DNA of 64,000 nt from Minisyncoccia bacterium (GTDB taxonomy: Bacteria; Patescibacteriota; Minisyncoccia; Phycocordibacterales; UBA9973). The notes under the pieces are model-generated. The model was not told where the DNA came from and did no database searches. It saw nothing but the letters and a program-made list of their open reading frames with translations. Location: positions 14,118 to 78,117 of the forward strand of contig JBBRWS010000002.1 of NCBI GenBank assembly GCA_038249055.1, read 5' to 3'. Positions 3,771 to 61,492 of the stretch are shown here, piece after piece. The position numbers and the translations under genes are program-made. Position 1 is the stretch's first letter; each line of letters starts with the position of its first letter.

Positions 3771-3817
3771 TAATTACTAATTAAAAATTACTGATTACTA
3801 ATTTTAAATACAAAAAT

Positions 3818-4171: not shown

Positions 4172-4795
4172 ATGGATACAACAAAACCAAAACCAAATAC
4201 AGGTAATAATAGAAGTTTTAGTAAACCAGCTTATGGAGCTAAAAGAGAAGGTAGTGATACACGTCGTTCACGTCCATCTTTCGAACGTCCAAAGCCAGAG
4301 TTTGATCAAAAAATGGTTTCAATTCGTCGCGTTACTCGTGTGGTAGCCGGTGGACGTCGTATGACATTTGCTGTCGCAATTGCTATTGGAGATAAAAAGG
4401 GTTCAGTTGGACTAGGAACTGGAAAGGGAGTTGATACTGCTATTGCAATTACAAAAGCTCTTCGCCAGGCAAAAAAGAACATGTTCAAAATAAAGACAAC
4501 AAAAGAAATGTCTATTGCTCATGAAGTTTCAGCTAAGTTTGCAAGTTCTCAATTGTCTATCATGCCTAACCGAGGAAAAGGTTTAGTGTCAGGAAGTACT
4601 GTTCGTGATATGCTAATATTAGCAGGTATAAAAAATGTAACTGCAAAGCTTCACTCAGGTAGTAAAAATAAATTAAACAACGCACGTGTCGCTTATAAGA
4701 CACTTTACATGCTTAGAGAAAAGTCATCTGCAGTAAAGTCAGTTCCTTTCGTTGCTGAAGCAGTAAAAGAGGAAGCAAAGGAAGAAGTTAAATAA
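4172..4795 (+). CDS. rpsE: 30S ribosomal protein S5 (with basic N-terminal extension)
   Basis: VTRVVAGGRRMTFAVAIAIGDKKGSVGLGTGKG is the S5 core. Confidence 0.9.
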   Translation: MDTTKPKPNTGNNRSFSKPAYGAKREGSDTRRSRPSFERPKPEFDQKMVSIRRVTRVVAGGRRMTFAVAIAIGDKKGSVGLGTGKGVDTAIAITKALRQAKKNMFKIKTTKEMSIAHEVSAKFASSQLSIMPNRGKGLVSGSTVRDMLILAGIKNVTAKLHSGSKNKLNNARVAYKTLYMLREKSSAVKSVPFVAEAVKEEAKEEVK

Positions 4796-6672: not shown

Positions 6673-7275
6673 ATGAACAAACCACAAACATTTATATTTT
6701 TTGGAATAGTTGGTTCTGGAAAGGGAACCCAAGTAGATTTATTAGAAAAGTTTTTAAAAGAAAAAAATATTTCAGATGATATTTTATTTACTTCAACAGG
6801 TAATGAGTATAGAAAATTAATTAATAGTGATACTCTTACAAGTAAAATTGTTAAAGTTAATCTAGAAAAAGGATTTCTACAGCCTGACTTTTTAACAATT
6901 AGTTTATTTACTGATATTTTAATTAGAGATTTAAAGGAAACCACTACTTTAATAGCTGATGGTTTTCCTCGCACTGTTTCTCAATCAGAAGCATTTGAAG
7001 ATATGATGAAATTCTATGACCGAGATAATGTTAAAATTGTTTACATAGAACTGAGTAGAGAAGAAGCTGTTAAAAGAATGAAATTAAGAGCACGCTCAGA
7101 TGATACTGATGAAGGTATTAAAAACCGTTTTGATGAATACGTAAATAATGTTGTTCCTTCAATGGATTATTTTAAAGATAAAAATGGTTATACTATATAT
7201 ACTATAAATGGAGACCAAGAAATAATTGATGTTCATAAGGAAATTATTAATAAAATTAATTTTAATCTTCTTTAA
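6673..7275 (+). CDS. adk: adenylate kinase
   Basis: P-loop GIVGSGKGTQ. Position after secY. 200 aa. Confidence 0.7.
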   Translation: MNKPQTFIFFGIVGSGKGTQVDLLEKFLKEKNISDDILFTSTGNEYRKLINSDTLTSKIVKVNLEKGFLQPDFLTISLFTDILIRDLKETTTLIADGFPRTVSQSEAFEDMMKFYDRDNVKIVYIELSREEAVKRMKLRARSDDTDEGIKNRFDEYVNNVVPSMDYFKDKNGYTIYTINGDQEIIDVHKEIINKINFNLL

Positions 7276-8104: not shown

Positions 8105-8146
8105 ATTCATTTGCTTATATCTATTATTTATTCTAATATCTTATAT

Positions 8147-8914
8147 ATGTCAGTAATAATAAAAACTCAAAAAGAAATAGATATTATTCGTGAAGGAGGT
8201 AAAATACTAGCCAAAGTTTTAGCACAAACAGCTAAACACGTTAAACCCGGTATTACCACAGGTGAGCTTGATAAGTATGCTCATGATTTAATTAAAAAAG
8301 AAGGTGGAACTCCAGCCTTTTTGAATTACAAACCAGAGGGGGCCTCACACGCTTTTCCAGCATCTATTTGTATATCCGTTAACAACGAGATAGTTCATGG
8401 TATTCCAACTAAAAACAGGATTTTAAAAGAGGGAGATATAGTTTCACTTGACCTTGGCGTGAAGTACAAGGGCCTTTTTACCGACCATGCTGTTACTGTT
8501 GCTGTAGGTAAGGTTTCAAAAAAAGATCAACAGTTAATGGCAGACACAAAAAAAGCTTTGGAAGTTGGTATCATGGCAGCACGAGGTGGAAATACTGTTG
8601 GTGATATTGGTCATGCAATTGAGTCATTTGTTAATAGGAGATATGGTATTGTGCGAGAGCTTGCAGGTCATGGAGTTGGAATAAAGATTCACGAAGATCC
8701 TTATATTCCCAATTATGGTAAAGCTGGAAAGGGACAGAAATTGATTCCTGGAATGGTTGTAGCTATTGAGCCTATGTTAAATCTCGGAAGAGATCACATT
8801 CTTAGTATGGATGATGGTTATACTATTAAAACTGCAGATGGTTCTCGAAGTGCTCACTTTGAACATACTATTCTCATCACAGAAGGTGATGCAGAAATTT
8901 TAACTATAGTATAA
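8147..8914 (+). CDS. map: methionine aminopeptidase type I
   Basis: MetAP-I fold motifs (HGIP, DxG, HGVG, EPM, EHT). I prefer the internal ATG at 8147 because the track ORF start overlaps the palindromes. Confidence 0.85.
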   Translation: MSVIIKTQKEIDIIREGGKILAKVLAQTAKHVKPGITTGELDKYAHDLIKKEGGTPAFLNYKPEGASHAFPASICISVNNEIVHGIPTKNRILKEGDIVSLDLGVKYKGLFTDHAVTVAVGKVSKKDQQLMADTKKALEVGIMAARGGNTVGDIGHAIESFVNRRYGIVRELAGHGVGIKIHEDPYIPNYGKAGKGQKLIPGMVVAIEPMLNLGRDHILSMDDGYTIKTADGSRSAHFEHTILITEGDAEILTIV

Positions 8915-8915: not shown

Positions 8916-9012
8916 TTGTAGAGGTTGTACCTCTCAATCAGTAGATTGACCTACTCGGTACGGGAGCCCAGTAGGTGATTGTACTCAATCAAGGTCCAAC
9001 CTCTACAATTTT
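8916..9012. repeat. composite palindromic repeat element (TTGTAGAGGTTGTACCTCTCAATCAGTAGATTGACC...GGTCCAACCTCTACAA)
   Basis: Member of a family seen at 12819, 16700, 20611, 27270, 31826, 36202 and 41616. Confidence 0.7.
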
Positions 9013-9038: not shown

Positions 9039-9110
9039 GCGGAATTGATAAAATTATTTCCTCTTTACCCCAGAGGGGCCCTACGAGATAAATAATTTTA
9101 TCAATTCCGC
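9039..9110. repeat. 21-nt perfect inverted repeat (GCGGAATTGATAAAATTATTT) flanking a CCCCAGAGGGG mini-palindrome
   Basis: Nested cruciform-capable structure 60 nt upstream of the 912-aa ATPase gene. Confidence 0.6.
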
Positions 9111-9172
9111 TTCACTAATAATTTATAGGTTTTTCCTGCTCCATTTTTATTTCTTATGGTATAATTATTCAC

Positions 9173-12517: not shown

Positions 12518-12818
12518 TTTGTATTATACATATAATTTTTTAAAAAAATTCAAAACTCAATTTGAAATACTGTCAAAAGTGTGCTCTTTTAAAAAAGTAC
12601 TTGCGCAGTTTTGTTCTAGGAGTATACTAAAAGTAGGATTATTTGAAATGTGTTACCTAGAACAATTTTTTAGGGGATAAAGAGTTTTGATAAAAAACTG
12701 CGAATAATTATTTTTACAAATTTTTATCATCCTTGGTCCCACCTAGCTTTATGCTATGGTAATACGGCCTTCGATAGTCCTAATAAACAATTCTTCCGAG
12801 AGGAAGGATTTTTTATTT

Positions 12819-12912
12819 TTAGAGGTCCAACCTTGATTGAGTACAATCACCTCACGGGTCGGGGCCAGATTTGCCCGTGAGGTCAATCTGCTGATTGAAG
12901 GTTGGACTCTAA
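12819..12912. repeat. composite palindromic repeat (TAGAGGTCCAACC...CAATCTGCTGATTGAAGGTTGGACTCTA), inverse orientation of the 8916 copy
   Basis: Lies in a 590-bp intergenic region. Preceded by a small hairpin CTTCC-GAGA-GGAAG + T-run at 12793-12816. Confidence 0.7.
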
Positions 12913-14473: not shown

Positions 14474-14959
14474 ATGAATTTTTTAAAACAAAATTCTTTT
14501 GTTGTTTTTAATCATAAAAAAGGTTTTACTTTTATAGAACTTCTCGTTGTTATTTCTATTATTGGAGTTTTATCAACTGTTGTATTGGCATCTCTAAATA
14601 GTGCTAGGGCAAAAGCTAGGGATGCTAAAAGAGAAAAAGATGCCTATGAATTAAGAACTGCACTAAGCATGTATTTTACAGATCATGGTAATTTTCCATT
14701 ATGTGATTTATATGAAGGAGTTGAGCCAGATGGAGGTTTTGTCGTTAGGTCAAACGAGGCTTTATGGAATAGTTGTTTAGGTTTAAAATTGAATCCTTAT
14801 ATAAAAGAAGTTCCACAAGATCCAAATGGTTCATCTTATTATTACTATAGTTGTAACTCCTCATCCTCGTCATCAGCAACTTGTGGAGAGAGTGGGGTAT
14901 ATTTAAATATTTATTTTAAAAAAAGAATACCAAATTTTTTAGCTTTAACTATAAATTAA
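14474..14959 (+). CDS. type IV pilin-like protein (prepilin N-terminal cleavage/methylation domain)
   Basis: KKGFTFIELLVVISIIGVLSTVVLASLNSAR class-III signal. Confidence 0.75.
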   Translation: MNFLKQNSFVVFNHKKGFTFIELLVVISIIGVLSTVVLASLNSARAKARDAKREKDAYELRTALSMYFTDHGNFPLCDLYEGVEPDGGFVVRSNEALWNSCLGLKLNPYIKEVPQDPNGSSYYYYSCNSSSSSSATCGESGVYLNIYFKKRIPNFLALTIN

Positions 14960-14995: not shown

Positions 14996-15337
14996 TTAAA
15001 TACTTTTTACTATTCTGGCAAATGTTTCTGGATTTTTCTGAGCTAAGTCAGAAAGGATTTTTCGGTCAATTACGATGCTCTTCTTTTTAAGTCCATCTAT
15101 AAATTTACTATATGAAATTCCAAGTGGGCGAACAGCAGCATTGATACGTGTAGTCCATAGACTTCTTGCATCAGCTTTTTTATCCTTACGGTGAGCGAAT
15201 GAGTAATTACCTGAGTGTTTCAAAGCTTCTTTAGCTTGTGCTACTTTTGTACTGCGTCCAAAACGGAAGCCTTTTGTTTGTGCAAGTATATTCTTACGAC
15301 GCTTATGTTTTATTGTTCCTCTTTTTACTCTTGTCAT
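14996..15337 (-). CDS. rplT: 50S ribosomal protein L20
   Basis: MTRVKRGTIKHKRRKNILAQTKGFRFGR matches the L20 N-terminus. Confidence 0.9.
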   Translation of the reverse strand: MTRVKRGTIKHKRRKNILAQTKGFRFGRSTKVAQAKEALKHSGNYSFAHRKDKKADARSLWTTRINAAVRPLGISYSKFIDGLKKKSIVIDRKILSDLAQKNPETFARIVKSI

Positions 15338-15378
15338 ATTATTCTATTTGTAATTAGTAATTCTTAATTAGTAATTAT

Positions 15379-15570
15379 TTACGCGTTTGGTAAATAAGTT
15401 CTAGTAACTTTATTTGAAAAATTTTGTTGATTCATTTTTCTTCCACCCAATTGCTTTGTTCGTGATTGTTTTGCGTTAAAATGGTTGAATCCCGGAGCAC
15501 GAGATAGGATTTTACCATTTTTTGTAACCTTTAAACGTTTTGTTAATGATTTATTTGTTTTGATACTCAT
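15379..15570 (-). CDS. rpmI: 50S ribosomal protein L35
   Basis: 63-aa basic protein with the KTNKSLTKRLKVTKNGK pattern, between infC and rplT. Confidence 0.85.
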   Translation of the reverse strand: MSIKTNKSLTKRLKVTKNGKILSRAPGFNHFNAKQSRTKQLGGRKMNQQNFSNKVTRTYLPNA

Positions 15571-16177: not shown

Positions 16178-16399
16178 TATGTATGAGAATACTCATCCAT
16201 ATGCTCCTCGCTTGTCGTGAAAAATAGATTACCTACCTAAGGCGAATATTATCATATTTATGTTAATATGGCAATACTTGTCCCGTTAGAAGCCGTGGTC
16301 ATAGTTTGTAATGGGAAATTGATATATTATTGTTAATTATTAACTAAAAATCCGCAAATTGGTATTTATTAATTATGAACACGATTTGCTTTTAATGGG

Positions 16400-17434
16400 A
16401 TGCAAGAGAAGATAAAGATAGTTTATAAAAAGAGTGGACAAACACCCCTAGATTGTATAAATGAAGCCAAAAAAGCAAATTCAGATTTACTTCGTTTACC
16501 TTTAACTTATGCTGGCCGTTTAGACCCTCTAGCAGAGGGTGTTCTTGTTCTTTTAATTGGAGATGAATGTCTAAAAAAGGATGAATATTTAAAACTACCA
16601 AAAGAATATGAGGTTACTATTTTATTTGGTTTTTCTACTGATACATATGATTTAATGGGGAAGGTTATAGATATTAGCACTACGTCGGAATTGTTATTTA
16701 AAAGGTCCTCGGACGAGGGGGTAGAGGTCCAACCTTCAATCAGCAGATTGACCTCACGGGCAAATGTGACCCCAGAGGTTGTACCTCTACTAAGAAAAAA
16801 CGATGAAGCTTTAAATAATCATATTAATTTTGTTGCATCAAGTAAACAAGTGGAATCAAAAGATTCATTTAAAATGGTCTGGCCGAGCCTTAGAGGTACA
16901 ACATCCGAAGTCAGCTTGATGTTGGACCTCTTGGCGAGGAAATCCGAGGACCTTTTAAATGAATCTTTTGATGGAACGACTAAACAAATTAATAAATTTC
17001 TTCCACAATTTACAGGACGTATAACACAATCATATCCACCGTATTCTTCTCGTACGGTAAATGGTAAACCTCTTTATAAATGGGCAAGGGAAGGAAAGTT
17101 AAATGAAATTATAATTCCTTCTCATGATGTATTTGTTGAAAGTATTGAAATAATTAATGAAGGTCTTATTTCTGGAGAAGAATTTTTAAATAAAATAAAA
17201 AAAGATATAGCTCTTGTTTCTGGAGATTTTCGTCAAGAAGAAATTATTAATTTATGGAAAGAAACATTAAAAGACAAAAAAGAAGAACAATATAAAACTA
17301 TAACTTTAAAAATATCTTGTGGTAGTGGAGTGTATGTAAGGGGTATAGCTCACGAACTAGGCATAGCTTTAGGTGTTCCAGCTCTTGCTCTACATATAAA
17401 AAGAACAAAAGTAGGAGAATATAAAAATCAATAA
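16400..17434 (+). CDS. truB: tRNA pseudouridine(55) synthase TruB-like, carrying a ~85-aa in-frame insertion encoded by palindromic repeat elements
   Basis: The TruB motif AGRLDPLAEGVLVLLIG and ILFGFSTDTYD come before the insertion. QSYPPYSSRTVNGKPLYKWAREG comes after it. Confidence 0.75.
   Translation: MQEKIKIVYKKSGQTPLDCINEAKKANSDLLRLPLTYAGRLDPLAEGVLVLLIGDECLKKDEYLKLPKEYEVTILFGFSTDTYDLMGKVIDISTTSELLFKRSSDEGVEVQPSISRLTSRANVTPEVVPLLRKNDEALNNHINFVASSKQVESKDSFKMVWPSLRGTTSEVSLMLDLLARKSEDLLNESFDGTTKQINKFLPQFTGRITQSYPPYSSRTVNGKPLYKWAREGKLNEIIIPSHDVFVESIEIINEGLISGEEFLNKIKKDIALVSGDFRQEEIINLWKETLKDKKEEQYKTITLKISCGSGVYVRGIAHELGIALGVPALALHIKRTKVGEYKNQ
16700..16956. mobile_element. composite palindromic repeat element inserted in frame within truB (13-bp perfect terminal inverted repeat AAAAGGTCCTCGG)
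   Basis: AAAAGGTCCTCGGACGAGGGGG...TAGAGGTCCAACC...CAATCAGCAGATTGACCTCACGGG...TTAGAGGTACAAC..GTTGGACCTCT...CCGAGGACCTTTT. Confidence 0.7.
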
Positions 17435-17461: not shown

Positions 17462-17580
17462 AAAAGTGGAATCAAAATAAGTATTTAAAATGGTCTGGCA
17501 TTGGTTCCCGTTCCCCTCGTCCGAGGACCTTTTAAATACTTATTTTGATGGAACGATTGATTAACTTATTAATTTCTTAG
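17462..17580. repeat. degenerate duplicate of truB-internal sequence (16848-17005) carrying a short copy of the AAAATGGTCTGG...CCGAGGACCTTTT element
   Basis: GTGGAATCAAAA..ATTTAAAATGGTCTGGC and TTTTGATGGAACGA occur both inside truB and downstream of its stop. Confidence 0.6.
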
Positions 17581-20610: not shown

Positions 20611-20668
20611 AAAAAAAATAGTAGAGGTTGGACGTCTTCCGTAGATGTACAACCTCTACTATTTTTTT
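20611..20668. terminator. repeat-family hairpin acting as a bidirectional terminator (A-run, TAGAGGTTGGACGTC..GTACAACCTCTA, T-run)
   Basis: Lies between convergent genes. Confidence 0.65.
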
Positions 20669-27062: not shown

Positions 27063-27504
27063 GATCTAATTTTAGTTTATTGAATTTTCTTTACCACTCT
27101 AAATAGGGGAACAAAGAAAATTCAATAAATTAAATTTAACCAAAATTTTAAAGAGCGCACTCCTTATATGATAGCATGTTTTGTGGTAAAAGTCAAGGGA
27201 GAGGTGGCGGGATATCTTCCTCTACGAATGCGGGAACCACGAGTACGTGTTCGGTCACTCATAATTTTCTGGTGAAAATTTGTGCGACCCTCAATCAGTA
27301 GATTGACCTCACGGGCGACTCGCACCGTCTTTCGATTCCCGCGGGACCGCGAGTACGCTTATCGAACACTACGTTTTCAGGTACTTTTCGATTTGGTTAA
27401 CACCAAATAGCGAAAAGTCTTTCGATTTCCGCACTCGAGCAAAGCAGTTTGCTCGCTCATCTCCACATATGAAAAAACATCCTGTAAAGGATGTTTTTTC
27501 ATAT

Positions 27505-27896: not shown

Positions 27897-27989
27897 CTAT
27901 GAAATTTTTAAGAAAAATTTCAATTAATAATTACTGATTACCAATGACTAATTAAGAATTCAAAATTAGTAATCAGTAATTGTTAATTA

Positions 27990-28436
27990 TTAATTAATTT
28001 TATACTCTCTTCTTATTTCTCTATCAACATCTCGTTTTTTGATAGTTTCTCTTTTATCAAAAACTTTTTTTCCTCTTGCGACTGCGACAGATACTTTAAT
28101 ATAACGACCCTTACTATACAATGAAATAGGGATAAGAGTCAAACCTTTGATATCGTCCTTCTCTGCTAGCTTCTTGATTTCTTTTTTAGACAAAAGAAGT
28201 CTTCTATTTCTATCTGGGTCATACCCAGGGTTGGTGTTATTTTGTTGGTATGGAGGTATATGCATTCCTATAATAAATGCTTCTCCTCCACGAATAACGC
28301 AAAAGGCTGCGGTGATACTTCCTTGCCCTTTCTTTATTGATTTCACTTCAAATCCAGAAAGTTCGATACCTGCTTCAAAGGTTTCTTCTATACTGTAATT
28401 GAAATGTGCTTTTCTATTATCTATATATGTTGTCAC
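27990..28436 (-). CDS. smpB: SsrA-binding protein SmpB
   Basis: FNYSIEETFEAGIELSGFEVKS...RRLLLSKKEI. Sits immediately 5' of ssrA on the same strand. Confidence 0.9.
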   Translation of the reverse strand: MTTYIDNRKAHFNYSIEETFEAGIELSGFEVKSIKKGQGSITAAFCVIRGGEAFIIGMHIPPYQQNNTNPGYDPDRNRRLLLSKKEIKKLAEKDDIKGLTLIPISLYSKGRYIKVSVAVARGKKVFDKRETIKKRDVDREIRREYKIN

Positions 28437-31266: not shown

Positions 31267-31310
31267 AAATAATTACTGATTATCAGTTACTAGTTAATAA
31301 TTTTAAATCA

Positions 31311-31343
31311 AACAACCCCGAAGCTTCGCTTCGGGGTTGTTTG
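31311..31343 (+). terminator. intrinsic terminator (AACCCCGAAGC..GCTTCGGGGTT)
   Basis: Long GC-rich stem + TTT. Confidence 0.7.
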
Positions 31344-31464: not shown

Positions 31465-31538
31465 CCGCCCTTAGCTCAGTTGGTTAGAGCACAGAGCTTA
31501 TACCTCTGGGGTCCTAGGTTCGAATCCTAGAGGGCGGA
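31465..31538 (+). tRNA. tRNA-Ile (anticodon UAU)
   Basis: Folded manually. Acceptor CCGCCCU/AGGGCGG, D-arm GCUC..GAGC, anticodon stem CAGAG/CUCUG with loop CUUAUAC, T-arm CUAGG-UUCGAAU-CCUAG, discriminator A. Terminator CAGGGGTTACCCTG + T7 at 31544-31572. Confidence 0.8.
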
Positions 31539-31574
31539 CAATTAAAAAAATCAGGGGTTACCCTGGTTTTTTTA

Positions 31575-32000
31575 ATTGTCCGCCCTAGCAAGCAAACTAC
31601 TTTGCTTGCGTCTAGGATTCGAAGACCTTGAGCATGTATCATGAAATTTTAATTTCAGGATACGCGAAAGGTGTACAGAATCTGTAAGATTCGAAAAGCG
31701 TAATCGCGGTCCTAGAGGGCCAGAGCGTCTAGGATTCGAAAGACTTTTCATTATCAGCTTTGCTGATTGAAAAGTACCTGGCTACGTGGTAGCCGAAAAA
31801 TGTACTCATGGTCCTAGAGTATTATAAAAATAGAGGTTGGACGTCTCCCGTAGACGTACAACCTCTATTTTTATATGGTCCGCCCTAGCAAGCAAACTAC
31901 TTTGCTTGCGTCTAGGATTCGAAAACCTTTTCCTTGTGAGTGTACTCGCGAACGGAAAAGGTGTACTGGTCCAGTAAGGACCGAAAAGTGTACTCACGGT
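31575..32000. repeat. tRNA-Ile-adjacent repeat array: two copies of GTCCGCCCTAGCAAGCAAACTACTTTGCTTGCGTCTAGGATTCGAA plus GATTCGAAAGACTTTTC..GAAAAGT(G)TACTCAYGGTCCTAG modules
   Basis: Copies at 31575-31625 and 31868-31925. GGTCCTAGAG and GTCCGCCCT are inverted or partial copies of the tRNA 3' end (TCCTAGAGGGCGGAC). Confidence 0.7.
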
Positions 32001-32150
32001 CCTAGTGCATTTTATAAATTAGACTGCGAGGCGATTTAACCATTGACAATATGCATATAATTATGGTATAATAAAAATACAGTTTTATTACTTTGTATAT
32101 AAAGTATATAATCAAGGTAATTAAAAATTAATAATTAACTCATCTTATTT

Positions 32151-36182: not shown

Positions 36183-36201
36183 GAATAAATTAATAAAAAA
36201 T

Positions 36202-36274
36202 AAAAATAGAGGTTGGACGTCTCAATCAGTAAGTTGACTTACTGGGTAAGGGGGACGTACAACCTCTATTTTTG
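36202..36274. terminator. repeat-family hairpin/terminator (TAGAGGTTGGACGTC-TCAATCAGTAAGTTGACTTACTGGG-..GACGTACAACCTCTA) with flanking A/T runs
   Basis: Directly after the stop of the 1226-aa gene. Confidence 0.65.
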
Positions 36275-36336
36275 TTATCCAAATTATATTAATTGACAGT
36301 AAATATTGATTAAAGGTATCATGGGTATATAAATTA

Positions 36337-40693: not shown

Positions 40694-40790
40694 TACCGCC
40701 TATAGCTATAAATATAATTAGTAAAATTATAGTTCTTGTTTTACTTAATTCTTTTTTCATGTAAATATTATATCAGAATATTTTATATTG

Positions 40791-40879
40791 CGGAGACGGC
40801 GAGATTCGAACTCGCGAGGGGGTTTGAAGCCCCTGCCTCTTTAGCAAAGAGGTACGTTAGACCACTCTGACACGTCTCC
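40791..40879 (-). tRNA. tRNA-Ser (anticodon GCU), type II
   Basis: Minus strand GGAGACG..anticodon stem CCUCU/AGAGG with loop UUGCUAA, a long variable arm, T-arm GCGAG-UUCGAAU-CUCGC, discriminator G. Confidence 0.8.
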
Positions 40880-41110: not shown

Positions 41111-41196
41111 GGAGGCGTGGATGAGTGGCTTAAATCAACGGTTTACTAAACCGTCGTCCCCTTAAAGGACCGTGAGTTCGAATCTCACCGCCTCCG
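41111..41196 (+). tRNA. type-II tRNA, Ser-like (G73, long variable arm) with atypical anticodon loop UUACUAA (formal anticodon ACU)
   Basis: Acceptor GGAGGCG/CGCCUCC, 3-bp D-stem, anticodon stem ACGGU/ACCGU, variable hairpin GUCC-CCUUAAA-GGAC, T-arm GUGAG-UUCGAAU-CUCAC. Confidence 0.65.
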
Positions 41197-41229
41197 CATG
41201 TTGAAAAAATTGCCCTTTTATGGGGCATT

Positions 41230-41612
41230 TTTTCTTATGCGGAGGTGAACAAATGAACTGCTTCATTTGTGTGTGAGATTCGAAAGACTTTTCCTTGTTG
41301 TAGACGGAAAAGTACCCGCCGCAGTATCGGCGAATCTCACCGCCTCCGCAAAAAACAGAAAACCCGAAAGGGTTTTTCTTTTTGCGGGCGAAAGAGCAAA
41401 CTGCTTTGCTCTTGTGTGAGATTCGAAAGACTTTTCGTTCTCTGGTGTTAACCAGAGCGAAAAGTACCTGGCTATGTAGTAGCCGAAAAATGTACTCATG
41501 GTCTCACTGCTACATTCGAAAGACTTTTTTTTATTGAAGATAGAAATACCTCAATTAACAAATTGACCTACTGGGCGCCGCAGTATCGGCGAATCTCACC
41601 GCCTCCGCAAAT
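41230..41612. repeat. tRNA-adjacent repeat array: TGTGTGAGATTCGAAAGACTTTTC..GAAAAGTACC modules plus two direct copies of the tRNA 3' end (CGCAGTATCGGCGAATCTCACCGCCTCCGCA)
   Basis: The tRNA 3' end GAATCTCACCGCCTCCGCA recurs at 41335-41358 and 41590-41612. GTGAGATTCGAA is the inverted T-arm. Confidence 0.7.
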
Positions 41613-41615
41613 AAT

Positions 41616-41664
41616 AAAAATAGAGGTTGTACGTCTACGGGAGACGTCCAACCTCTATTTTTAT
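41616..41664. terminator. repeat-family hairpin/terminator, inverse orientation (TAGAGGTTGTACGTC..GACGTCCAACCTCTA)
   Basis: Downstream of the minus-strand gene 41673..42179. Its orientation is flipped relative to the copies after plus-strand genes. Confidence 0.65.
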
Positions 41665-41672
41665 TATTTTTT

Positions 41673-48088: not shown

Positions 48089-48218
48089 TATCCGATACTA
48101 AAATTTATTAATATATTATTATTCTGACTATTAGTATAATAGCATGAAAATTTTTTATTATAAATTTTCAGAGGTCCAACCCCTACTGACAACTAGAAAC
48201 TATCTACTAGAACCTAAT

Positions 48219-48935: not shown

Positions 48936-50072
48936 ATGGATAATTCACTTAAAAAAATTTTTTCTGAAGGGCTAACTAATCTTTCGAATGTTTTCAATTC
49001 GGATAAGAATAAAGATGAGGCACTCGGGATTGATATTGGTTCTTCTGCAATAAAAGTTGTACAACTAAAAAAGAAAGGAGGAAAGGCCATACTTGAAACG
49101 TATGGAATTCTTTCGCTAGGACCTTATGGTAAAGCAGATATAGGAGCAGTTACAAATTTACCAACGGAAGATATTTCTCGTGCTTTATTAGATGTAATCA
49201 AAGAGTCAAACGTCACTACAAATTCAGCTGTAATTGCTATTCCTTCTCTCTCAAGTTTGATTTTCACTCTTTCTTTACCAGGTAATATATCTGAAAACCA
49301 AATTGCAAAAATTGTTCCAATTGAGGCTCGTAAATATATCCCAGTTCCTATTTCAGAAGTTGCGCTCGATTGGTTTGTAATTCCACAAGAAGCAGAGTCC
49401 TTTGAAACAGATGGAACAGAACAAAGCACCACACAATCAAAAATAGAAGTTTTAGTTGTGGCAATTCACAATGATACATTGTCAAAGTATCAAGACATTC
49501 TAAAAAAAACTGATTTACACTCTCAATCTTTTGAAATGGAAATTTTTAGTAATATTCGGTCTTCATTTAATCATGACTTAGCCCCAGTATTGCTTGTTGA
49601 TTTTGGAGCTTCAAAAACAAAAGTTTCAATTGTTGAAGCTGGAATAGTTCGCGTGTTCCACGTGGTTAATCGTGGTTCTCAAGATATAAGTAAAAACATA
49701 TCACAATCCATGGGTATTACATTTGAGGAAGCAGAGAAATTAAAAAGAACAATAGGTCTTGATGCTAGAATGGACCCAAAAGTAGAGAATATAGTTCGTT
49801 TATCCGTTGACTATATCTTTTCAGATATCAACAGTGTTGTGCTTGCGTACGAGAAGAAGTATAATAAAAACATTAGTAAAGTTATTTTAGTTGGAGGGGG
49901 TTCTTTATTAAGAGGGCTACTCGATCGTGCTAAAGAAAATTTTAAAACCGAAGTTACTTACAGTAATCCTTTTTTGAAAACAGAAGCTCCTGCGTTCCTC
50001 GGACCGATATTAGAAATTAGTGGACCTGAGTTTGCTGTAGCCGTTGGTCTAGCGCTACGACAATTATCATAA
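48936..50072 (+). CDS. pilM: type IV pilus assembly protein PilM (actin-like ATPase fold)
   Basis: ALGIDIGSSAIKVVQLKK...DFGASKTKVSIV...ILVGGGSLLRGL. Confidence 0.8.
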   Translation: MDNSLKKIFSEGLTNLSNVFNSDKNKDEALGIDIGSSAIKVVQLKKKGGKAILETYGILSLGPYGKADIGAVTNLPTEDISRALLDVIKESNVTTNSAVIAIPSLSSLIFTLSLPGNISENQIAKIVPIEARKYIPVPISEVALDWFVIPQEAESFETDGTEQSTTQSKIEVLVVAIHNDTLSKYQDILKKTDLHSQSFEMEIFSNIRSSFNHDLAPVLLVDFGASKTKVSIVEAGIVRVFHVVNRGSQDISKNISQSMGITFEEAEKLKRTIGLDARMDPKVENIVRLSVDYIFSDINSVVLAYEKKYNKNISKVILVGGGSLLRGLLDRAKENFKTEVTYSNPFLKTEAPAFLGPILEISGPEFAVAVGLALRQLS

Positions 50073-50082
50073 ATATATAATT

Positions 50083-50739
50083 ATGGAGAATAATTCATTT
50101 CAAACATCTTTTATACCTAAGAAGCCAATAACTTCTGGAATATCAGATAAAGAGCCAAAAAGTCTTTTTACAATAATATCTACTTTTTTGTTAGTAGTTT
50201 CAATAATAATACCTACAGGATTATTTTTTTATAGATCTTATTTAGAAAAACAAAAAGTTTCCCTTGCTGCTTCTCTTCTGGTAGGCCGTGATAGTTTTGA
50301 AAAGGGAACAATAGACGAATTAAGTTTATTTGATAAACGCATAGAGGTATCAAAACAAGTTCTAAGTAAACATATTATTTTATCCCCGCTATTTACTTTA
50401 TTGGGAGAAATCACAATACCCGCAATTCAATATACAAATTTTGTACAACAAACAAATGATAAAGGTTTTTCTGTTAGCATAGAAGGTTTAGCCCGTGATT
50501 ATAAATCTATTGCAATTCAATCAAATGTATTCAGTAGTGCCAAGGGTAACTTTTTAAAAAATGTTTTATTTTATAATCTGACAAAAGATAAAAATAATAA
50601 TATTAGTTTTAATCTTAAATTTGAAATAGATCCAAGTCTTCTTTCTTATCAAAATAGTATTACACCAAATAGTCTCCAAGTTTTAAATAATTCCGCAACA
50701 AATCCATTATCACTAGGGTTAAATAATAAAACACAATAA
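50083..50739 (+). CDS. pilN: PilN-like type IV pilus assembly protein (single N-terminal TM)
   Basis: Position after pilM and bitopic topology. Confidence 0.5.
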   Translation: MENNSFQTSFIPKKPITSGISDKEPKSLFTIISTFLLVVSIIIPTGLFFYRSYLEKQKVSLAASLLVGRDSFEKGTIDELSLFDKRIEVSKQVLSKHIILSPLFTLLGEITIPAIQYTNFVQQTNDKGFSVSIEGLARDYKSIAIQSNVFSSAKGNFLKNVLFYNLTKDKNNNISFNLKFEIDPSLLSYQNSITPNSLQVLNNSATNPLSLGLNNKTQ

Positions 50740-50742
50740 TTT

Positions 50743-51339
50743 ATGAGATTAATCTTTTCAATTTCATTCATAATAATATCAGTAGCTTTATTTTTTGTCT
50801 TTACAGACCCTATTTATGGTGATGTAAGAAAGTTAAATACAGAAGTATCCACTTATAATACAGCTCTAAGTAATTCAACTGAATTACAAAAAACCAGAGA
50901 TACTCTAGTAAATGTATATAAAAACGTAACAAAAGAAGACAAGGATAACTTAGCTCATTTTTTGCCTACTACTATTGGGAATATTGAATTAATCCTTGAA
51001 ATAGAAAAAATTGCCAATTTATATGGTATGCCTATCAAAGATATCAAATTTGAAACTAAAAGCTTAGAGCAAGGTATAGTAAACAAAGACAATATTGTTG
51101 TTGCGGAAAAAGATCCATCTGATTATTTACCATATGGTGTTTTTCCTTTAGAATTTGTGATAGAAGGAAGATATGATACTTTTGTAACTTTTTTGAAAGA
51201 TTTAGAGCATAACCTACGTTTGGTTGATGTAAAATCTATTTCTTTTTCAGTTCCTCCTCCAACAGCGGGTGGTGCAAATACAACAAACCCAAATATATAC
51301 ACCTTCACATTAAAAATTGAGATTTATTGGCTAAAATAA
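50743..51339 (+). CDS. pilO: PilO-like type IV pilus assembly protein
   Basis: N-terminal TM plus a coiled segment, in the pilMNO gene order. Confidence 0.5.
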   Translation: MRLIFSISFIIISVALFFVFTDPIYGDVRKLNTEVSTYNTALSNSTELQKTRDTLVNVYKNVTKEDKDNLAHFLPTTIGNIELILEIEKIANLYGMPIKDIKFETKSLEQGIVNKDNIVVAEKDPSDYLPYGVFPLEFVIEGRYDTFVTFLKDLEHNLRLVDVKSISFSVPPPTAGGANTTNPNIYTFTLKIEIYWLK

Positions 51340-51340
51340 T

Positions 51341-52006
51341 ATGAAAAAAAAATATAACAAATTCTTAATAGTGTCCACAGTATTTCTTTTTATAGGAGGT
51401 GTATATTTATATTCATCAAACGATTTAATTTCTGGAGATATTGTTCCTGTAGCTTTTGGTAGCTCTTTAGAATCATCTGTTTTAGCTGAATCAGCTTTAG
51501 TTTCATCACCTGTAATGGCGGAAGAGGTTAATTCTGACATATCTTTTCTTGCAACTTTAGTTTCTCTTAAAAATATTAAAATGGATACATCTATTTTTAA
51601 TTTAGACACATTTAAGGCACTTAAAAATAATGCTGTTCAAATAGAATTAGTTCCAAGTAAACCAGGAAGAGTCAATCCGTTTGCCCCAATAACTGTAACC
51701 GAATCAGTTGGGGTTAGTGCAGCTCCCGTTGTTGCTACAAACCAACCAACTGAAGTTACAGACAAAACAGCTATATTTAATGGAACAGTTAATACGGATA
51801 GTGTAGTTACTGATACCTATTTTGAATATGGAATAAGTGCACAAGGAGTAAATAATAAAATAGAAATAGCAAAACTTTCACTTGTTGGGAATTTTGTTAA
51901 GAATATTGTAGGGTTAACTCCCCAAACAACTTATTTTTATAAAGCATGCGCAAGGATTAATAATATAGCAAGTTGTGGAGATGTAGTTTCGTTTACTACA
52001 AAATAA
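51341..52006 (+). CDS. pilus-assembly-associated protein with N-terminal TM and C-terminal beta-sandwich-like domain (PilP-like position)
   Basis: Gene order only. No conserved motif. Confidence 0.3.
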   Translation: MKKKYNKFLIVSTVFLFIGGVYLYSSNDLISGDIVPVAFGSSLESSVLAESALVSSPVMAEEVNSDISFLATLVSLKNIKMDTSIFNLDTFKALKNNAVQIELVPSKPGRVNPFAPITVTESVGVSAAPVVATNQPTEVTDKTAIFNGTVNTDSVVTDTYFEYGISAQGVNNKIEIAKLSLVGNFVKNIVGLTPQTTYFYKACARINNIASCGDVVSFTTK

Positions 52007-52010
52007 ACCT

Positions 52011-53750
52011 ATGGTACTTTTAGAAGAGCTTATAAAACGTGGACTTCTTAAAGAAGAGCAGGTATCTAATGTTACAAAGGTTGCTGAGGAAAAATATAAT
52101 GGCAACATAGATGAGGCCTTACTCGACTTTAATCTAGATGAAGAAAAAATACTTGAGATAAAGGGTGAAATTTTTGGTATTCCAATCAAAATTGTTGACC
52201 CTAAAACTGTGCCAGTTTCAGTTCTTCAGTTAATACCTATTGATGCTGCTAAAATATATCACTTTGTTCCTTTAGATTTAACAGACAGTTTTCTTGAAGT
52301 TGGAATAGTTGATCCGGACAATATTCAGGCAGTAGATGCTCTTACTTTTATTACAGCCAAATTAAATAAACCATTTAAGTTATTTTTAATCACTACTACC
52401 ACCTATAATAAACTAGTAGAAAGATATATAGGGGATACTAGTCAAGAAGTTGATCAAGCTTTAAATGAGCTCGATACTGAAATTGCTGGAGCAACGGATG
52501 GAGGTGTAACTATTGAATCAAGTACTAAAACATCAGATAGTCTCAAGCCAGGAGAAGAAGAAAAAATTGTGGAAGATGCCCCTATTATTAAAATAGTGGC
52601 TGTTATTCTTCGTAGTGCTACAGAAGGATTCGCTTCCGATATACACATTGAAAATACTGGAGATAAAGTCAAAGTCCGTTTTCGTGTTGATGGAATTCTG
52701 CATACATCACTTTTCTTGCCTATCAGTGTTTATAATGGAGTAGTGGCTCGTATTAAAATTCTTTCCAAGCTTAGATTAGATGAAAAACGTAAACCACAAG
52801 ATGGAGGTTTTTCTGCAAAGATTGATAATCGTAAAATAGACTTTCGTGTTTCTACAATGCCTGCTTATTTTGGAGAGAAAGTCGTTATGCGTATTTTGGA
52901 TTCCCAAAAAGGTATTCATAAAATAGATGACATCGGTTTGTCAGATGAGAATTTAGCTCTTATCAGAGAAGCCCTAGCTCGCCCTTATGGTTTGATATTA
53001 ATGACGGGTCCTACAGGTTCCGGTAAAACGACTTCCTTGTATTCTATGTTGGGTGAACTCAACAAAGAAGATAAAAATATTGTTTCACTTGAAGATCCTG
53101 TTGAATACAAGATTGATGGAGTAAATCAATCTCAGGTAATGCCAGAAATCGGATACACTTTTGCTTCAGGATTACGCTCCATACTTCGTCAGGACCCAAA
53201 TATTATTTTGGTGGGAGAAATCCGTGATAAAGAAACAGCGGAACTAGCAATTCAAGCCGCCCTTACTGGTCACTTGGTTTTATCTACTCTCCACACAAAC
53301 AATGCCATCGGCGCTATTCCACGTTTAATAGATATGGGAATAGACCCTTATCTTATAGCGCCTACTCTTATTCTTTGTATGGCCCAACGTTTGGCTCGTA
53401 GAATTCATCCAAATTCTAAACACGAAATTCCTATTGATGAGTCAACTATGCAAATGTTTAATAAACAATTTGCCGATTTACCAGAACCATATAAATCCAG
53501 ATTAAATTTAGGAAAAACCCTCTATGAAGCAGTTCCTTCTGCGGAAAGTGCCAATGGTCTAAGTGGACGTATTGCTTTGTTTGAAATGTTTAAGATAGAT
53601 AAAGAAATGCAGGGAATAATTTTGAAAGATCCTGAAGAGATAACTATTTACAATCATGCACGTTCAAAAGGTATGCTCACACTTAAAGAAGACGCAATTA
53701 TAAAAAGCATAAGAGGAGATATCCCTATACAAGAAGTTTATAATACTTAA
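52011..53750 (+). CDS. pilB: type IV pilus assembly ATPase PilB (GspE family)
   Basis: N-terminal T2SSE_N-like domain, Walker A GPTGSGKTTSLYSML, Asp box, Walker B ILVGEIRD. Confidence 0.9.
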   Translation: MVLLEELIKRGLLKEEQVSNVTKVAEEKYNGNIDEALLDFNLDEEKILEIKGEIFGIPIKIVDPKTVPVSVLQLIPIDAAKIYHFVPLDLTDSFLEVGIVDPDNIQAVDALTFITAKLNKPFKLFLITTTTYNKLVERYIGDTSQEVDQALNELDTEIAGATDGGVTIESSTKTSDSLKPGEEEKIVEDAPIIKIVAVILRSATEGFASDIHIENTGDKVKVRFRVDGILHTSLFLPISVYNGVVARIKILSKLRLDEKRKPQDGGFSAKIDNRKIDFRVSTMPAYFGEKVVMRILDSQKGIHKIDDIGLSDENLALIREALARPYGLILMTGPTGSGKTTSLYSMLGELNKEDKNIVSLEDPVEYKIDGVNQSQVMPEIGYTFASGLRSILRQDPNIILVGEIRDKETAELAIQAALTGHLVLSTLHTNNAIGAIPRLIDMGIDPYLIAPTLILCMAQRLARRIHPNSKHEIPIDESTMQMFNKQFADLPEPYKSRLNLGKTLYEAVPSAESANGLSGRIALFEMFKIDKEMQGIILKDPEEITIYNHARSKGMLTLKEDAIIKSIRGDIPIQEVYNT

Positions 53751-53800
53751 TTATAAATTAGCTGTAGTAAAACATTTACAATTGTATTATATCGATTACG

Positions 53801-53960
53801 ATAGAACAACGGCTCTCGGACGTCATGCAAACAAATTTATATTTATTTGCATACGCTCCTCGTTTGTTGTTATGTAGGGTACTATAGAACAACGGCATTC
53901 GGACATGATGCAAATAAATTGATATTTATTTGCAAATGCTCCTCACTTGTTGTTATAATA
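53801..53960. repeat. tandem ~83-bp direct repeat (2 units) containing internal palindromes, ending in an extended -10 box TGTTATAAT
   Basis: ATAGAACAACGGC..TCGGAC..ATGCAAA..AAAT..ATATTTATTTGCA..GCTCCTC..TTGTTGTTAT repeated twice. A related box lies at 58500-58612 upstream of pilD. Confidence 0.7.
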
Positions 53961-53966
53961 AAAGAT

Positions 53967-54362
53967 ATGGAAACAGATCTAAAAAATATTTTAATAATAG
54001 ATGATGACAGTTTTTTGCTTGATATGTATGCATTGAAATTTATTAAATCAAATTTTAATGTTTCTACTGCTCTTGGTTCAGAAATAGCGCTAGAAAAATT
54101 ACGAGGTGGACTTAAGCCTGAAATTATTCTTCTAGATATTATGATGCCAGTAATGGATGGATTTGAATTATTAGAAAAAATTAAAGAAGAAGACTTAGCT
54201 CCAAATGCAGTAGTTATTTTTCTTTCCAATCGAGGCCAACCATCAGATGTAACTCGAGCAGAAGAACTCGGTGCTTCCGGTTATATTGTAAAAGCATCAT
54301 GTATTCCTTCCGAAGTCATTGAAAAAGTAATTAAAATAGTTAATAGCAAAAAGAAACAATAA
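53967..54362 (+). CDS. single-domain response regulator (CheY/PilH-like receiver)
   Basis: ILIIDDDSFLLDM...ILLDIMMPVMDGFELLEKIK...VIFLSNRG. I chose the start at METDLK. Confidence 0.8.
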   Translation: METDLKNILIIDDDSFLLDMYALKFIKSNFNVSTALGSEIALEKLRGGLKPEIILLDIMMPVMDGFELLEKIKEEDLAPNAVVIFLSNRGQPSDVTRAEELGASGYIVKASCIPSEVIEKVIKIVNSKKKQ

Positions 54363-54446
54363 TACCTGTCCCGTTAGAAGCCGCGATTGTAATTTATATA
54401 ATAAAAATAACATGAAATCAAACATTGAAAATATTAACAGTTTAAC

Positions 54447-55550
54447 ATGTCAGATACGCGAGTTAATCGCGATCTGCTTCTAATCGGGATGGATTATAAA
54501 AATTTTATTCATGGATTAATTGAAAATCTAATAGACCAAGATGGGTCTGATTTACATTTGGGAGTAGGTAGAAAGCCCGCCATAAGAATAAACGGACAGC
54601 TTATATTTCTTGTAAATAATAATGTTTTAACAGATGTTGATATGACAGGAATTTTGACTGCGCTTATTGGCCCTGATAGATATAAAAAGTTTTTAGAATC
54701 TAAGAACTCAGATTTTTCTAGTAACCTAAATGATGGCAAAGTTCAGTTGCGTGGAAATGCTTTTTTTCAACGTGGAATGATTTGTATTGCTATACGTTTA
54801 GTTCCAAAACCAAAATCATTTGAGACCTTAAATTTACCACCAATTCTTAAAGATTTTTCTAGAAAAAAACAAGGATTTTTCCTTGTAGTAGGACCAGTGG
54901 GTCAAGGTAAATCCACAACTCTATCTACAATGATAAATATGATAAATTCTGAGACAGCTGCTCATATTATGACGATAGAAGACCCAATAGAATTTATATA
55001 TCAACCAGATAGGTCTATTATAGACCAGAGAGAAATAGGCGTTGACACTGACGATTTTGTCAAAGCTCTAAAATCAGCTTTTCGTGAAGATGCCAATGTT
55101 TTGCTTATTGGAGAAATGCGTGATGCTGATACTATTTCTGCTGCAGTTACAGCTGCCGAGACCGGTCATTTGGTATTATCTACTCTACATACAAACAATG
55201 CCTCTCAAACTATCGACCGTATTATTGATTCATTTGAAGCAAATCAACAAGGACAAATTCGCTTGCAACTAGCATCAAGTTTGCTCGGTATTTTTTCACA
55301 GCGTTTAATTCCTCGTATTTCTGGTGGACGTATCCCAGCATATGAACTTCTTATTAATAATAAAGCTATAGCAAACCTTATTAGAGAGAAGAGAACTCAC
55401 GAGATTGATACAGTAATAGAAACTTCTTCCCATGAAGGAATGGTAGATATGAATAGATGTCTTATCGATTTAGTTCAGAGAGGGGAAATAAGCCTAGAAA
55501 CAGCTTATGAATATTCTATTAATCCTAAGGCCTTAGAGCAAATGTTTTAA
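54447..55550 (+). CDS. pilT: type IV pilus retraction ATPase PilT
   Basis: Walker A GPVGQGKSTTLSTMIN, HIMTIEDPIEF, LIGEMRD, GHLVLSTLHTNNA. Confidence 0.85.
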   Translation: MSDTRVNRDLLLIGMDYKNFIHGLIENLIDQDGSDLHLGVGRKPAIRINGQLIFLVNNNVLTDVDMTGILTALIGPDRYKKFLESKNSDFSSNLNDGKVQLRGNAFFQRGMICIAIRLVPKPKSFETLNLPPILKDFSRKKQGFFLVVGPVGQGKSTTLSTMINMINSETAAHIMTIEDPIEFIYQPDRSIIDQREIGVDTDDFVKALKSAFREDANVLLIGEMRDADTISAAVTAAETGHLVLSTLHTNNASQTIDRIIDSFEANQQGQIRLQLASSLLGIFSQRLIPRISGGRIPAYELLINNKAIANLIREKRTHEIDTVIETSSHEGMVDMNRCLIDLVQRGEISLETAYEYSINPKALEQMF

Positions 55551-55553
55551 TAT

Positions 55554-56765: not shown

Positions 56766-56894
56766 AATAAAAATAGATATCCACAGCATATACTTATTAT
56801 ATTGTTTAATTGATTCTATGATATAATAACTATAGTTTTATTATTAAAAGTCGCGTCTTTCGCAAAAGACAAATTATTAACGTTAAATTTTATT

Positions 56895-57335: not shown

Positions 57336-57389
57336 TATAAATTATCTCATGTCTCTCGAAAAGACAAATTATAAGAATTAAATATTATT

Positions 57390-57839: not shown

Positions 57840-57904
57840 TAAATATTTTTTTATTAACGAAAATATATTTTTGAAAAGACAAATTATAAGAATTAAATAT
57901 TATT

Positions 57905-58357: not shown

Positions 58358-58613
58358 TTAAATTTTTATAGTTTAAACAAAAAACTACCCCATGGGTAGT
58401 TTTTTGTTTTTTTTATTAAATTTTATGGGTTTTTTATTATAGATTAATATAATTGTAATAGTGCTAAAAGACTAAGTAAATAAAATTAATTCATTTATTA
58501 CTGCTCTTCACTTATTGTTATGTCGGGTACGATATAACAACAATCCTAGGGCACTAAAAAAATAAAAAATATTCAATTTGCTTGTACTCCTTGTTTGTTG
58601 TTATAATACACTT

Positions 58614-59426: not shown

Positions 59427-59442
59427 TTATTAAATATTTATA

Positions 59443-60135: not shown

Positions 60136-60179
60136 AATACCTGTCCCGTTAGAAGCCGCAATCGCAAAGTAAATAAATT

Positions 60180-60773: not shown

Positions 60774-60828
60774 ATAAATATACCTGTCCCGTTAGAAGTC
60801 GCAATCATAAAGTAAATAAAAATAAATT

Positions 60829-61488: not shown

Positions 61489-61492
61489 AAAA

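Follow-up and report, generated by a model that had tools for sequence, protein, structure and literature searches.

An interspersed family of short palindromic repeats at predicted terminator positions in a Paceibacteria-like genome

The 64-kb stretch of contig JBBRWS010000002.1 (Minisyncoccia bacterium) that was analysed here as a whole, in the following called the window, contains a family of short hairpin repeats that recurs in related genomes and is found, missing or of different size at orthologous sites. In our interpretation, to which we assign a probability of about 0.7, these hairpins form an interspersed, lineage-specific family of short palindromic repeats in a Paceibacteria-like genome of the Candidate Phyla Radiation (CPR), akin to repetitive extragenic palindromic (REP) sequences, transposable elements of the miniature inverted-repeat type (MITEs) and the SPRITE repeats of pneumococci, with one of two sub-families, Type I, acting as transcription terminators.

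Composition of the repeat family

With up to two mismatches allowed, the arm TAGAGGTTGGACGTC occurs 11 times in the window where 0.07 occurrences are expected, and the partner arm GACGTACAACCTCTA occurs 10 times against 0.03 expected, in DNA with a G+C content of 32.5%. The 15-mer arm is itself a near-palindrome (AGAGGT-N3-ACsTCT). A search for pairs of arms over the window and the sequences of all relatives (designated by L numbers) separated two sub-families, which have in common a stem box of 7 bp where GTTGGAC faces GTACAAC, as a rule with a single mismatch. Type I has the form AGAG-GTTGKAC-sTCT-loop-AGAs-GTMCAAC-CTCT with a loop of 5 nucleotides (nt), an A-run to the left and a T-run to the right. 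Type II reads AGAG-GTCCAAC-ATC-AGGCTGGCTTCG-GAT-GTTGTAC-CTCT, the box halves being swapped between the arms when compared to Type I. At least five of the ten positions to the left are A and at least six of the ten to the right are T in 18 of 21 unique Type I copies, and a T-run is present in none of ten Type II or other copies. Members of Type II lie in intergenic DNA, at the tip of another palindrome or inside open reading frames (ORFs), namely the second truB copy of the window (16892-16931), truB of L142 and, with one copy, the uvrC ORF of L137. Altogether about nine two-armed or solo copies of these short imperfect palindromes, a format known from REPs, are present in the 64 kb, with more in related contigs; solo arms occur at 48169-48188 of the window and also in L120.

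A preliminary description of this DNA had proposed a modular hairpin repeat family, and in this respect it holds, both for the inner modules, which are found in either orientation relative to the outer box, and for the orthologous sites, which carry short, medium, long or no versions. All copies that it listed (20611, 31826, 36202, 41616, 8916, 12819 and truB) were found at their sites, and three were added that it had missed, the copy at 16892-16931 in truB, the solo arm and a diverged module at 41551-41575. The submodule that it reported as inserted in the longer copies and near the tmRNA, TCAATCAGYAGATTGA(CCTCACGGG), was recovered at 8934, 12883 (minus strand), 16736 and 27291, and with two mismatches at 36222; in the truB copy 16721 the module reads TCAATCAGCAGATTGA-CCTCACGGG. 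When the inner module is read forward, the box to its left is GTTGGAC in copy 36207, GTTGTAC in copy 8919 and in L144, and GTCCAAC in copy 16721 and, reversed, in copy 12820. As different left boxes thus stand beside an inner module of the same orientation, the modules combine freely.

Folding of the copies agreed with the hairpins described before. Short copies yield an approximately 25-bp hairpin that contains one mismatch and has -28 to -32 kcal/mol on either strand, and long copies a four-way junction with three inner hairpins on both strands. In copy 8919 this junction arises from an outer box stem around three hairpins (TCAATC/GATTGA, CCTACT..AGTAGG and GATTG/CAATC). The inner stem of copy 20622 also holds a G.U wobble, and copy 41621 is the exact inverse of the short hairpins including the loop (TACGGGA vs TCCCGTA). 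In a search of Rfam 15 only the tmRNA and three tRNAs passed, the hairpins giving weak chance matches of miRNA type, and at gathering or E-value thresholds no family was returned for the long four-way form, for the tRNA-linked units described below or for the region downstream of ndk. The cloverleaf-like long copies were not called tRNA-like by ARAGORN.

Position at gene ends

Type I copies are concentrated where genes converge. On a gene map drawn from Pfam domain assignments, convergent genes flank 14 and co-directional genes 6 of the 20 unique copies that could be classified; the distance to the nearest stop codon is 3-67 nt, and 3-37 nt for 18 of them. Convergent junctions make up 7 of the 64 junctions in the window, which gives an excess with a binomial p of 7e-10 (Fisher p = 2e-7). 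These seven junctions are occupied by four unique A-run/stem/T-run palindromes, two Type I copies and one different palindromic repeat. Promoter-like sites are present downstream of copies 31831 and 36207.

Indeed, Type I shows the anatomy of bidirectional intrinsic terminators, a G+C-rich stem with a T-tract and an upstream A-tract, as well as their location just past stop codons and mostly between convergent genes. The anatomy is not seen in copy 12820, in copy 8919 with its weak T-run or in any Type II copy. With the T-run on the left and the A-run on the right, copy 12820 is therefore not terminator-like on either strand. Despite the mismatch, which costs about 7 kcal/mol, Type I copies fold with -27 to -32 kcal/mol, compared to -20 to -30 kcal/mol for the unique terminators of the genome. 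A consensus terminator scan misses the family copies because it permits no mismatch in the stem.

The unique terminators of the same genome (14955-14990, 38416-38457 and 46837-46869) share with Type I the A-run, the G+C-rich stem, the short loop and the T-run, as well as position and stability. In contrast to ordinary bidirectional terminators, the family's stem sequence is found at many loci and across several related genomes, has a recurrent mismatch, takes up nested modules and has relatives inside ORFs. We conclude that Type I copies occupy the place of, and probably serve as, two-way intrinsic terminators. The bidirectional terminators of the preliminary description are thus supported for Type I by anatomy, position and interchange with unique terminators, but not for copy 12820 and the intragenic copies.

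In this interpretation, Type I fills the slot of rho-independent terminators at gene 3' ends, mostly between convergent genes, and transcription from either side would produce a stem-loop of about -28 kcal/mol with a U-tract behind it, so that RNA polymerase would be stopped in both directions. Type II and the long copy 12820, in which no T-run follows, may be neutral insertions without a terminator role, tolerated in frame in permissive protein loops or at the apex of other palindromes. Turnover of the family would comprise gain, loss, resizing by nested hairpin modules and swapping for the G+C core of resident terminators. Copying could be due to an enzyme acting in trans on hairpins, or to recombination at the short homologies that the A/T-run flanks of the copies provide.

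Table 1. Copies and modules of the repeat family in the window.
Form	Hairpin or extent	Element	Core	Mismatch	Setting and contents
Type I, long	8919-9005			U.C on + strand	5 nt after Peptidase_M24 stop (8914); T-run weak
Long, perfect box GTCCAAC/GTTGGAC	12820-12911				T-run left, A-run right; directly after terminator 12789-12819
truB-internal, in frame	16721-16790			C.U on mRNA	Encodes VEVQPSISRLTSRANVTPEVVPL; box GTCCAAC..GTTGTAC; no T-run
Type II 40-mer, in frame	16892-16931			A.G on mRNA	Inside truB
Type I, short	20622-20658	20611..20668	AGAGG..CCTCT 20623-20657	G.A on + strand	A-run 20611-20619, T-run 20660-20668; convergent, between 87-aa ORF (stop 20585) and OMP-decarboxylase-family gene on - strand (stop 20667)
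Inner module alone, TCAATCAGTAGATTGA-CCTCACGGG, + strand	27291..27315				Within GTGCGA/TCGCAC stem of repeat unit downstream of tmRNA
Type I, short	31831-31867	31822..31876	31832-31866	G.A on + strand	Between two tRNA-Ile-linked repeat units; consensus promoter downstream at 32043-32072
Type I, medium	36207-36268	36195..36278	36208-36267	G.A on + strand	Inner module TCAATCAGTAAGTTGA-CTTACTGGGTAAG; 25 nt past stop of 1226-aa gene; promoter-like site 36293-36322
Diverged inner module, TCAATTAACAAATTGA-CCTACTGGG, + strand	41551..41575				Inside second tRNA-Ser-linked unit
Type I, short, inverse	41621-41657	41612..41672	41622-41656	U.C on + strand	Between last tRNA-Ser 3'-end copy (ends 41609) and stop of AHSA1-like gene on - strand (41673)
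Solo arm, near-palindromic 15-mer AGAGGTCCAACCCCT	48169-48188				About 30 nt downstream of phosphoribosyltransferase gene (- strand)

Variation at orthologous sites

Metagenome contigs were scanned with a two-arm pattern, which yielded 21 loci with about 107 kb and 28-37% G+C, five pairs of which are the same sequence. Homologues of TruB gave syntenic loci of four further relatives (L142, L143/L144, L145 and L146). L139 is syntenic with the window at 12.5-18.3 kb and L131 at 27.5-31.3 kb, and the nearest named homologues of TruB belong to Candidatus Nomurabacteria and Paceibacterota, which places the organism among CPR bacteria of the Paceibacteria type. In viral contigs neither the hairpin nor the core of the tRNA-linked units was found, and a scan of genome contigs with 14 bases of one arm gave 118 chance matches in unrelated genomes, none with a second arm.

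As is known from MITEs, presence and absence could be followed at five sites. After Peptidase_M24 the window has its long copy, L144 a medium copy at the same spot, L145 none and L142 another palindrome. Downstream of ndk, behind the terminator belonging to a conserved non-coding region, the long copy 12820 of the window corresponds to a 40-nt Type II copy in L143 and to nothing in L139 and L145. The convergent betaCASP/L20 junction carries unique terminators in the window, L142, L143 and L145 and a Type I hairpin in L139, which sits in the same AAATAAAAAA(C)..(G)TTTTTTATT frame as the unique terminators of its relatives. At the junction of the 87-aa ORF and the OMPdecase gene the situation is reversed, with Type I copy 20622 in the window and a unique terminator in L143/L144; at both junctions the unique terminators have the same AAATAAAAAA..TTTTTTATTT frame, in which a single genome bears the family hairpin. 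Finally, about 300 nt inside truB of the window are lacking in L139. Since orthologous sites have no element, one of different size or a unique terminator instead, elements have been gained, lost and exchanged.

In truB the family contributes in-frame insertions in a conserved ORF that are absent from close homologues. The element-bearing TruB protein has 344 amino acids, compared to about 250-290 in homologues. The peptides EVQP..PEVVPL, which the elements encode, occur in some homologues, are missing from others or differ in size. The 40-nt Type II copy 16892 is nested exactly in the apical loop of a member of a second palindromic repeat family (about 16860-16990), and the closest relative, L146, shares the outer palindrome but has TTCCAAAAAATT as its loop instead.

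The TruB loop encoded by 16690-16990 (codons 97-197 approximately) is a hot spot for repeat insertions, with homologues ranging from about 250 to 344 amino acids and combining the repeat peptides TSELLFKRSSDEG, EVQP..PEVVPL, RMREDEEPDHKNW and VWPS..LARKSEDL in various ways. The second palindromic family, GTGGAATCAAAA..TTTAAAATGGTCTGGCC-loop-CCGAGGACCTTTTAAA..TTTTGATGGAAC, is found at 16860-16990 and 17465-17560, with a half copy at about 16685-16720, and also in L142, L143 and L146. Its sites are in frame in truB, where it hosts the nested Type II hairpin, and between truB and a phosphoglucomutase-family (PGM_PMM) gene.

The more distant relative L120 has the same box in other frames (GCGGTCCAACCGC and GATGTTGTACCGC) at a density of roughly one copy per kb. 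Its copies (760-960, 4620-4720, 6880-6960, 8110-8200 and 9080-9170) flank almost every gene and reach into the 5' end of an ORF similar to O-antigen ligases, and it is the only contig with perfect U-A boxes.

Conservation of the stem and its mismatch

Stem conservation was computed on an alignment of 16 distinct Type I copies, in which 89.5% of the cells are paired, compared to 79.6% in shuffles and at most 54% with the partners slid. As the search pattern had fixed most columns of the box and the outer stem, variation was possible only in the flanks, at the K/M position and in one pair of the inner stem. Changes on both sides were seen at 11 of the 25 stem pairs while the mismatch was retained: the box pair is mismatched in 14 of 16 copies, G-C in two and U-A in none. 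Across all forms, about 28 of 40 unique hairpins retain the mismatch, about ten are G-C and two, both from L120, are U-A. The asymmetry of the arms is thus real and frequent, not universal, and the statement that every copy keeps it does not hold, as the box of 12820-12911 is perfect and the relatives add the perfect G-C and U-A pairs just mentioned. We also dropped the notion of an invariant G arm, according to which the state would never be U-A, in view of the two L120 copies. A restriction site (GGWCC or GACGTC) as the cause of the G-to-T difference between the arms was rejected by inspection, since the inner-stem variants do not fit. Retention of the mismatch can be explained equally well by descent from a master copy, by constraints on the DNA palindrome or single-stranded hairpin, or by selection on the RNA form.

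Orientation of the copies and alternative explanations

The last of these possibilities had been favoured in the preliminary description, together with an orientation-specific use in which the element is flipped after a minus-strand gene. Here the G.A mismatch would be selected in the transcript and a given form would be read from the upstream gene, which we regard as very improbable. Retention of the mismatch in Type I while other pairs change would fit, as would the loop sequence, which always inverts along with the mismatch, and copies 20622, 31831 and 36207, which share the plus-strand orientation, while 41621 beside a minus-strand gene is indeed inverted. The flipping rule, which is based on four copies, fails, however, at 8919, which follows a plus-strand gene in the 'flipped' orientation, at 20622, which is unflipped 9 nt from the stop of a minus-strand gene, and in truB, whose mRNA carries one copy in each orientation. 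Moreover, with 14 of 20 copies between convergent genes both forms would be transcribed, and because of this location an upstream strand is undefinable for most copies. Where one gene is clearly nearer, its mRNA reads U.C in 7 cases and G.A in 2-3, a mixed picture (p = 0.18-0.34) whose non-significant lean runs opposite to the proposed rule. The two orientations fold with almost equal energy, and perfect G-C and U-A copies exist. Rules relating orientation to the upstream gene, to the nearest gene at convergent junctions or to the plus strand of the window (2 U.C : 3 G.A) were considered and none holds. There is no evidence for orientation-specific use; since the element is almost symmetric, the direction in which it lies is effectively arbitrary.

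Concerning the mode of spread, a possible though doubtful alternative is a REP-like mobile DNA, whose folded single-stranded hairpin would be recognised by a trans-acting enzyme encoded elsewhere, such as a REP-associated tyrosine transposase (RAYT) or other HUH transposase of the IS200 type, or an analogue. The mismatch would then mark the strand and terminator activity would be a by-product or a later co-option. This would account for presence and absence at orthologous sites, for the exact insertion into the apical loop of another palindrome, for nested modules in either orientation and for the intragenic copies, which REPs are also known to have; a conserved stem mismatch is likewise known from some REPs, e.g. 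the unpaired G/A of all P. aeruginosa GTAG-24 units (PMC3733652). However, the palindromes end without an unpaired GTAG or CGTC tag, the scanned ORFs, which cover part of one genome and contigs of relatives, gave neither a Y1 nor any other transposase domain, and the two flanks beyond the core are always complementary to each other, which would not be expected from simple insertion. In detail, the bases beside AGAGG..CCTCT differ among copies (c/g, t/a, gt/ac, tc/ga) but pair in every case, so that the palindrome runs on symmetrically into the flanks. A further reading that we judge unlikely would make the repeats self-propagating terminator cassettes: the near-invariant box, with its recurrent purine-purine or pyrimidine-pyrimidine mismatch, would be the site of a putative CPR enzyme acting on folded single-stranded DNA, which would guide the element together with its nested modules to apical loops of existing hairpins, be they resident terminators, other palindromic repeats, tRNA/tmRNA-linked units or tolerant loops of housekeeping genes. 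If true, this would mean a mobilome targeting hairpin apices in genomes that are regarded as streamlined.

Alternatively, no transposition would be involved, and a successful terminator sequence would spread from terminator to terminator by short-homology recombination or gene conversion through the A/T-run flanks, possibly aided by natural DNA uptake, with template switching at hairpins keeping arms and flanks symmetric. Replacement of the core inside the conserved AAATAAAAAA(C)..(G)TTTTTTATTT frame at orthologous junctions would be expected here, as would the flanks TAAAAAT..ATTTTTAT that three window copies share, their co-variation on both sides and the tRNA 3' ends, which are likewise mirrored across their terminators; a type IV pilus cluster is encoded in the window. 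Nevertheless this route seems rather unlikely to us, since it leaves the copies in ORFs or in a palindrome loop, which have no A/T-run frame, unexplained, and since symmetrising mechanisms should erase the conserved mismatch as well. DNA uptake could also enter in another way. Inverted pairs of DNA uptake sequences (DUS) act as terminators, and the box might be a protein recognition motif in double-stranded DNA of the type of Neisseria DUS or Haemophilus uptake signal sequences (USS), its inverted pairs doubling as terminators. The box is the most conserved part across sub-families that differ in outer and inner stems, its 15-mer arms are near-palindromic, solo arms exist, and copies occur in truB and in the DNA-repair gene uvrC, with pilus genes in the window. 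Yet box 8-mers number only 10 in the 64 kb of the window, or about one every 6 kb, and almost all of them belong to paired hairpins, where DUS/USS are expected at about one per kb with many solo copies within ORFs. The isolated box-like 8-10-mers seen in ORFs, two of them exact and the others with one mismatch, have no partner and appear fortuitous. The intragenic copies are length-changing insertions rather than motifs arising by point mutation, and the U-A variants of L120 do not fit either, making this reading unlikely, and the least credible of those considered.

The preferred reading, a family of interspersed palindromic repeats with Type I as terminators, also has to face several points that weigh against it. 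Among 40 ORFs of the window, L120, L126 and L137 scanned with Pfam, no transposase, integrase, HUH or Y1_Tnp domain was detected, and no parent element or insertion sequence was seen in the window or beside clusters of the element. At the best pair of empty and filled sites no direct target-site duplication is visible, the flanks being inverted and not direct repeats. The total sequence examined is small (about 235 kb), the baseline for the junctions was drawn from the window alone, and the invariance of stem columns is partly produced by the two-arm search pattern itself. Termination is deduced only from anatomy and position. In addition, a convergent bias is also expected of a parasitic element at sites where its insertion is harmless, an argument made for SPRITE by Croucher et al. 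(PMC3049150).

Comparison with known repeats and significance

One of the closest analogues is SPRITE of S. pneumoniae, a terminator-like repeat with AAAA/TTTT ends and 15 of 30 copies between convergent genes (PMC3049150). Both are interspersed repeats whose transcript would be a long stem followed by a U-rich tract. SPRITE shows the strongest enrichment of any pneumococcal repeat at convergent genes and 3' ends, has been proposed to be co-opted as terminator and, as here, permits no definition of an empty site or target-site duplication. It differs by its unrelated sequence and Firmicute host and by its structure, an 18-bp duplex with a long U-rich tract of about 105 nt in total that is not described as a two-way symmetric palindrome; nested modules, a terminator-less sub-family and a conserved stem mismatch have not been reported for it.

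REPs and bacterial interspersed mosaic elements associated with RAYTs, which fall into super-families with GTAG or CGTC tags (Di Nocera et al. 2013, PMC3733652), resemble the family as imperfect palindromes of 20-40 nt, with sub-families that have compensatory stem variants, convergent and co-directional sites at less than 20 bp from ORF ends (from both ends at convergent junctions), intragenic units and an invariant stem mismatch in some families, namely the unpaired G/A of GTAG-24. In contrast, the present family lacks the unpaired GTAG/CGTC end tag, CGTC being seen inside the stem only, no RAYT was found in the sequence examined, and the A-run/T-run terminator frame is absent from REPs. The Rickettsia palindromic elements (RPEs; Ogata et al. 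2000, as cited in PMC3184786) are comparable as in-frame palindromes in conserved genes of a reduced genome which give rise to lineage-specific extra peptide segments, here in truB and uvrC. They differ by their length of about 105-146 nt and unrelated sequence and are not described as terminator cassettes (PMC3184786).

The repeats are elements of a kind already known, here in a new lineage, and no new mechanism is revealed. Genomes of CPR bacteria (Patescibacteria) are small and are usually described as streamlined. In the literature searched, no paper was found that links CPR bacteria to REP-, MITE- or RPE-like repeats. The window shows that one Paceibacteria-like lineage contains several interacting palindromic repeat families, which supply or replace predicted transcription terminators, add tens of residues to conserved proteins such as TruB, and vary among close relatives. 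For annotation this means that terminators and 'extra' protein segments in such genomes may be derived from repeats, and for strain typing that repeat sites vary between close relatives. It also bears on the persistence of repeats in reduced genomes.

Neighbouring repeats and other features

The RNA genes of the window are a tmRNA, a tRNA-Ile(TAT) and two tRNA-Ser. Structured units of 115-260 nt are located downstream of the tmRNA (27200-27470, minus strand), tRNA-Ile (31540-32010) and tRNA-Ser (41198-41620). Past the terminator hairpin, they begin with the reverse complement of the T-arm and acceptor 3' end of the respective RNA, split by a small hairpin, and they have the conserved core TTCGAAAGACTTTTC .. 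GAAAAGTACCTGGCTAYGTRGTAGCCGAAAAATGTACTCATGGTC. Both tRNA-Ser units end in an exact copy of the last 19 nt of the tRNA (41332-41350 and 41591-41609), and the first of them folds with -50.8 kcal/mol and both ends paired. The relative L131 has the same tRNA-Ile and tmRNA without linked units. No Rfam or viral match was obtained for these units, which look like tiny elements integrating at tRNA 3' ends or like a new structured RNA. A tRNA-Ser at 41111-41197 was assigned the anticodon ACT by ARAGORN, which is unusual for bacteria, with a normal tRNA-Ser(GCT) beside it at 40790-40879; the tRNA-Ile with anticodon TAT (31465-31539) is also present in L131.

The non-coding region of about 300 nt between ndk and a beta-CASP RNase gene (approximately 12525-12819) is conserved in L139, L142, L143 and L145. 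It contains long-range complementary segments as well as its own terminator (12789-12819) and may be an undescribed small RNA gene.

A cluster resembling type IV pilus and competence genes extends from 48936 to 61981 and encodes PilM, a prepilin peptidase and at least eight pilin-like proteins with an N-methyl motif, including three tandem paralogues at 56895-58357. An extra pilin gene is found at 14474-14959, at a junction where relatives have none. A 38-nt motif (AATACCTGTCCCGTTAGAAGCCG..) at 16273-16310, 54361-54398, 60136-60173 and 60779-60816 precedes truB and several of the pilin-like genes; together with an 83-nt repeat at 53787-53952 and 58518-58600 it may represent shared leader or regulatory sequences. 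Finally, AT-rich intergenic repeats (TAATTACTGATTACTAATT) are located at 3771-3816, 15337-15379, 27921-27994 and 31270-31315, partly as inverted pairs.

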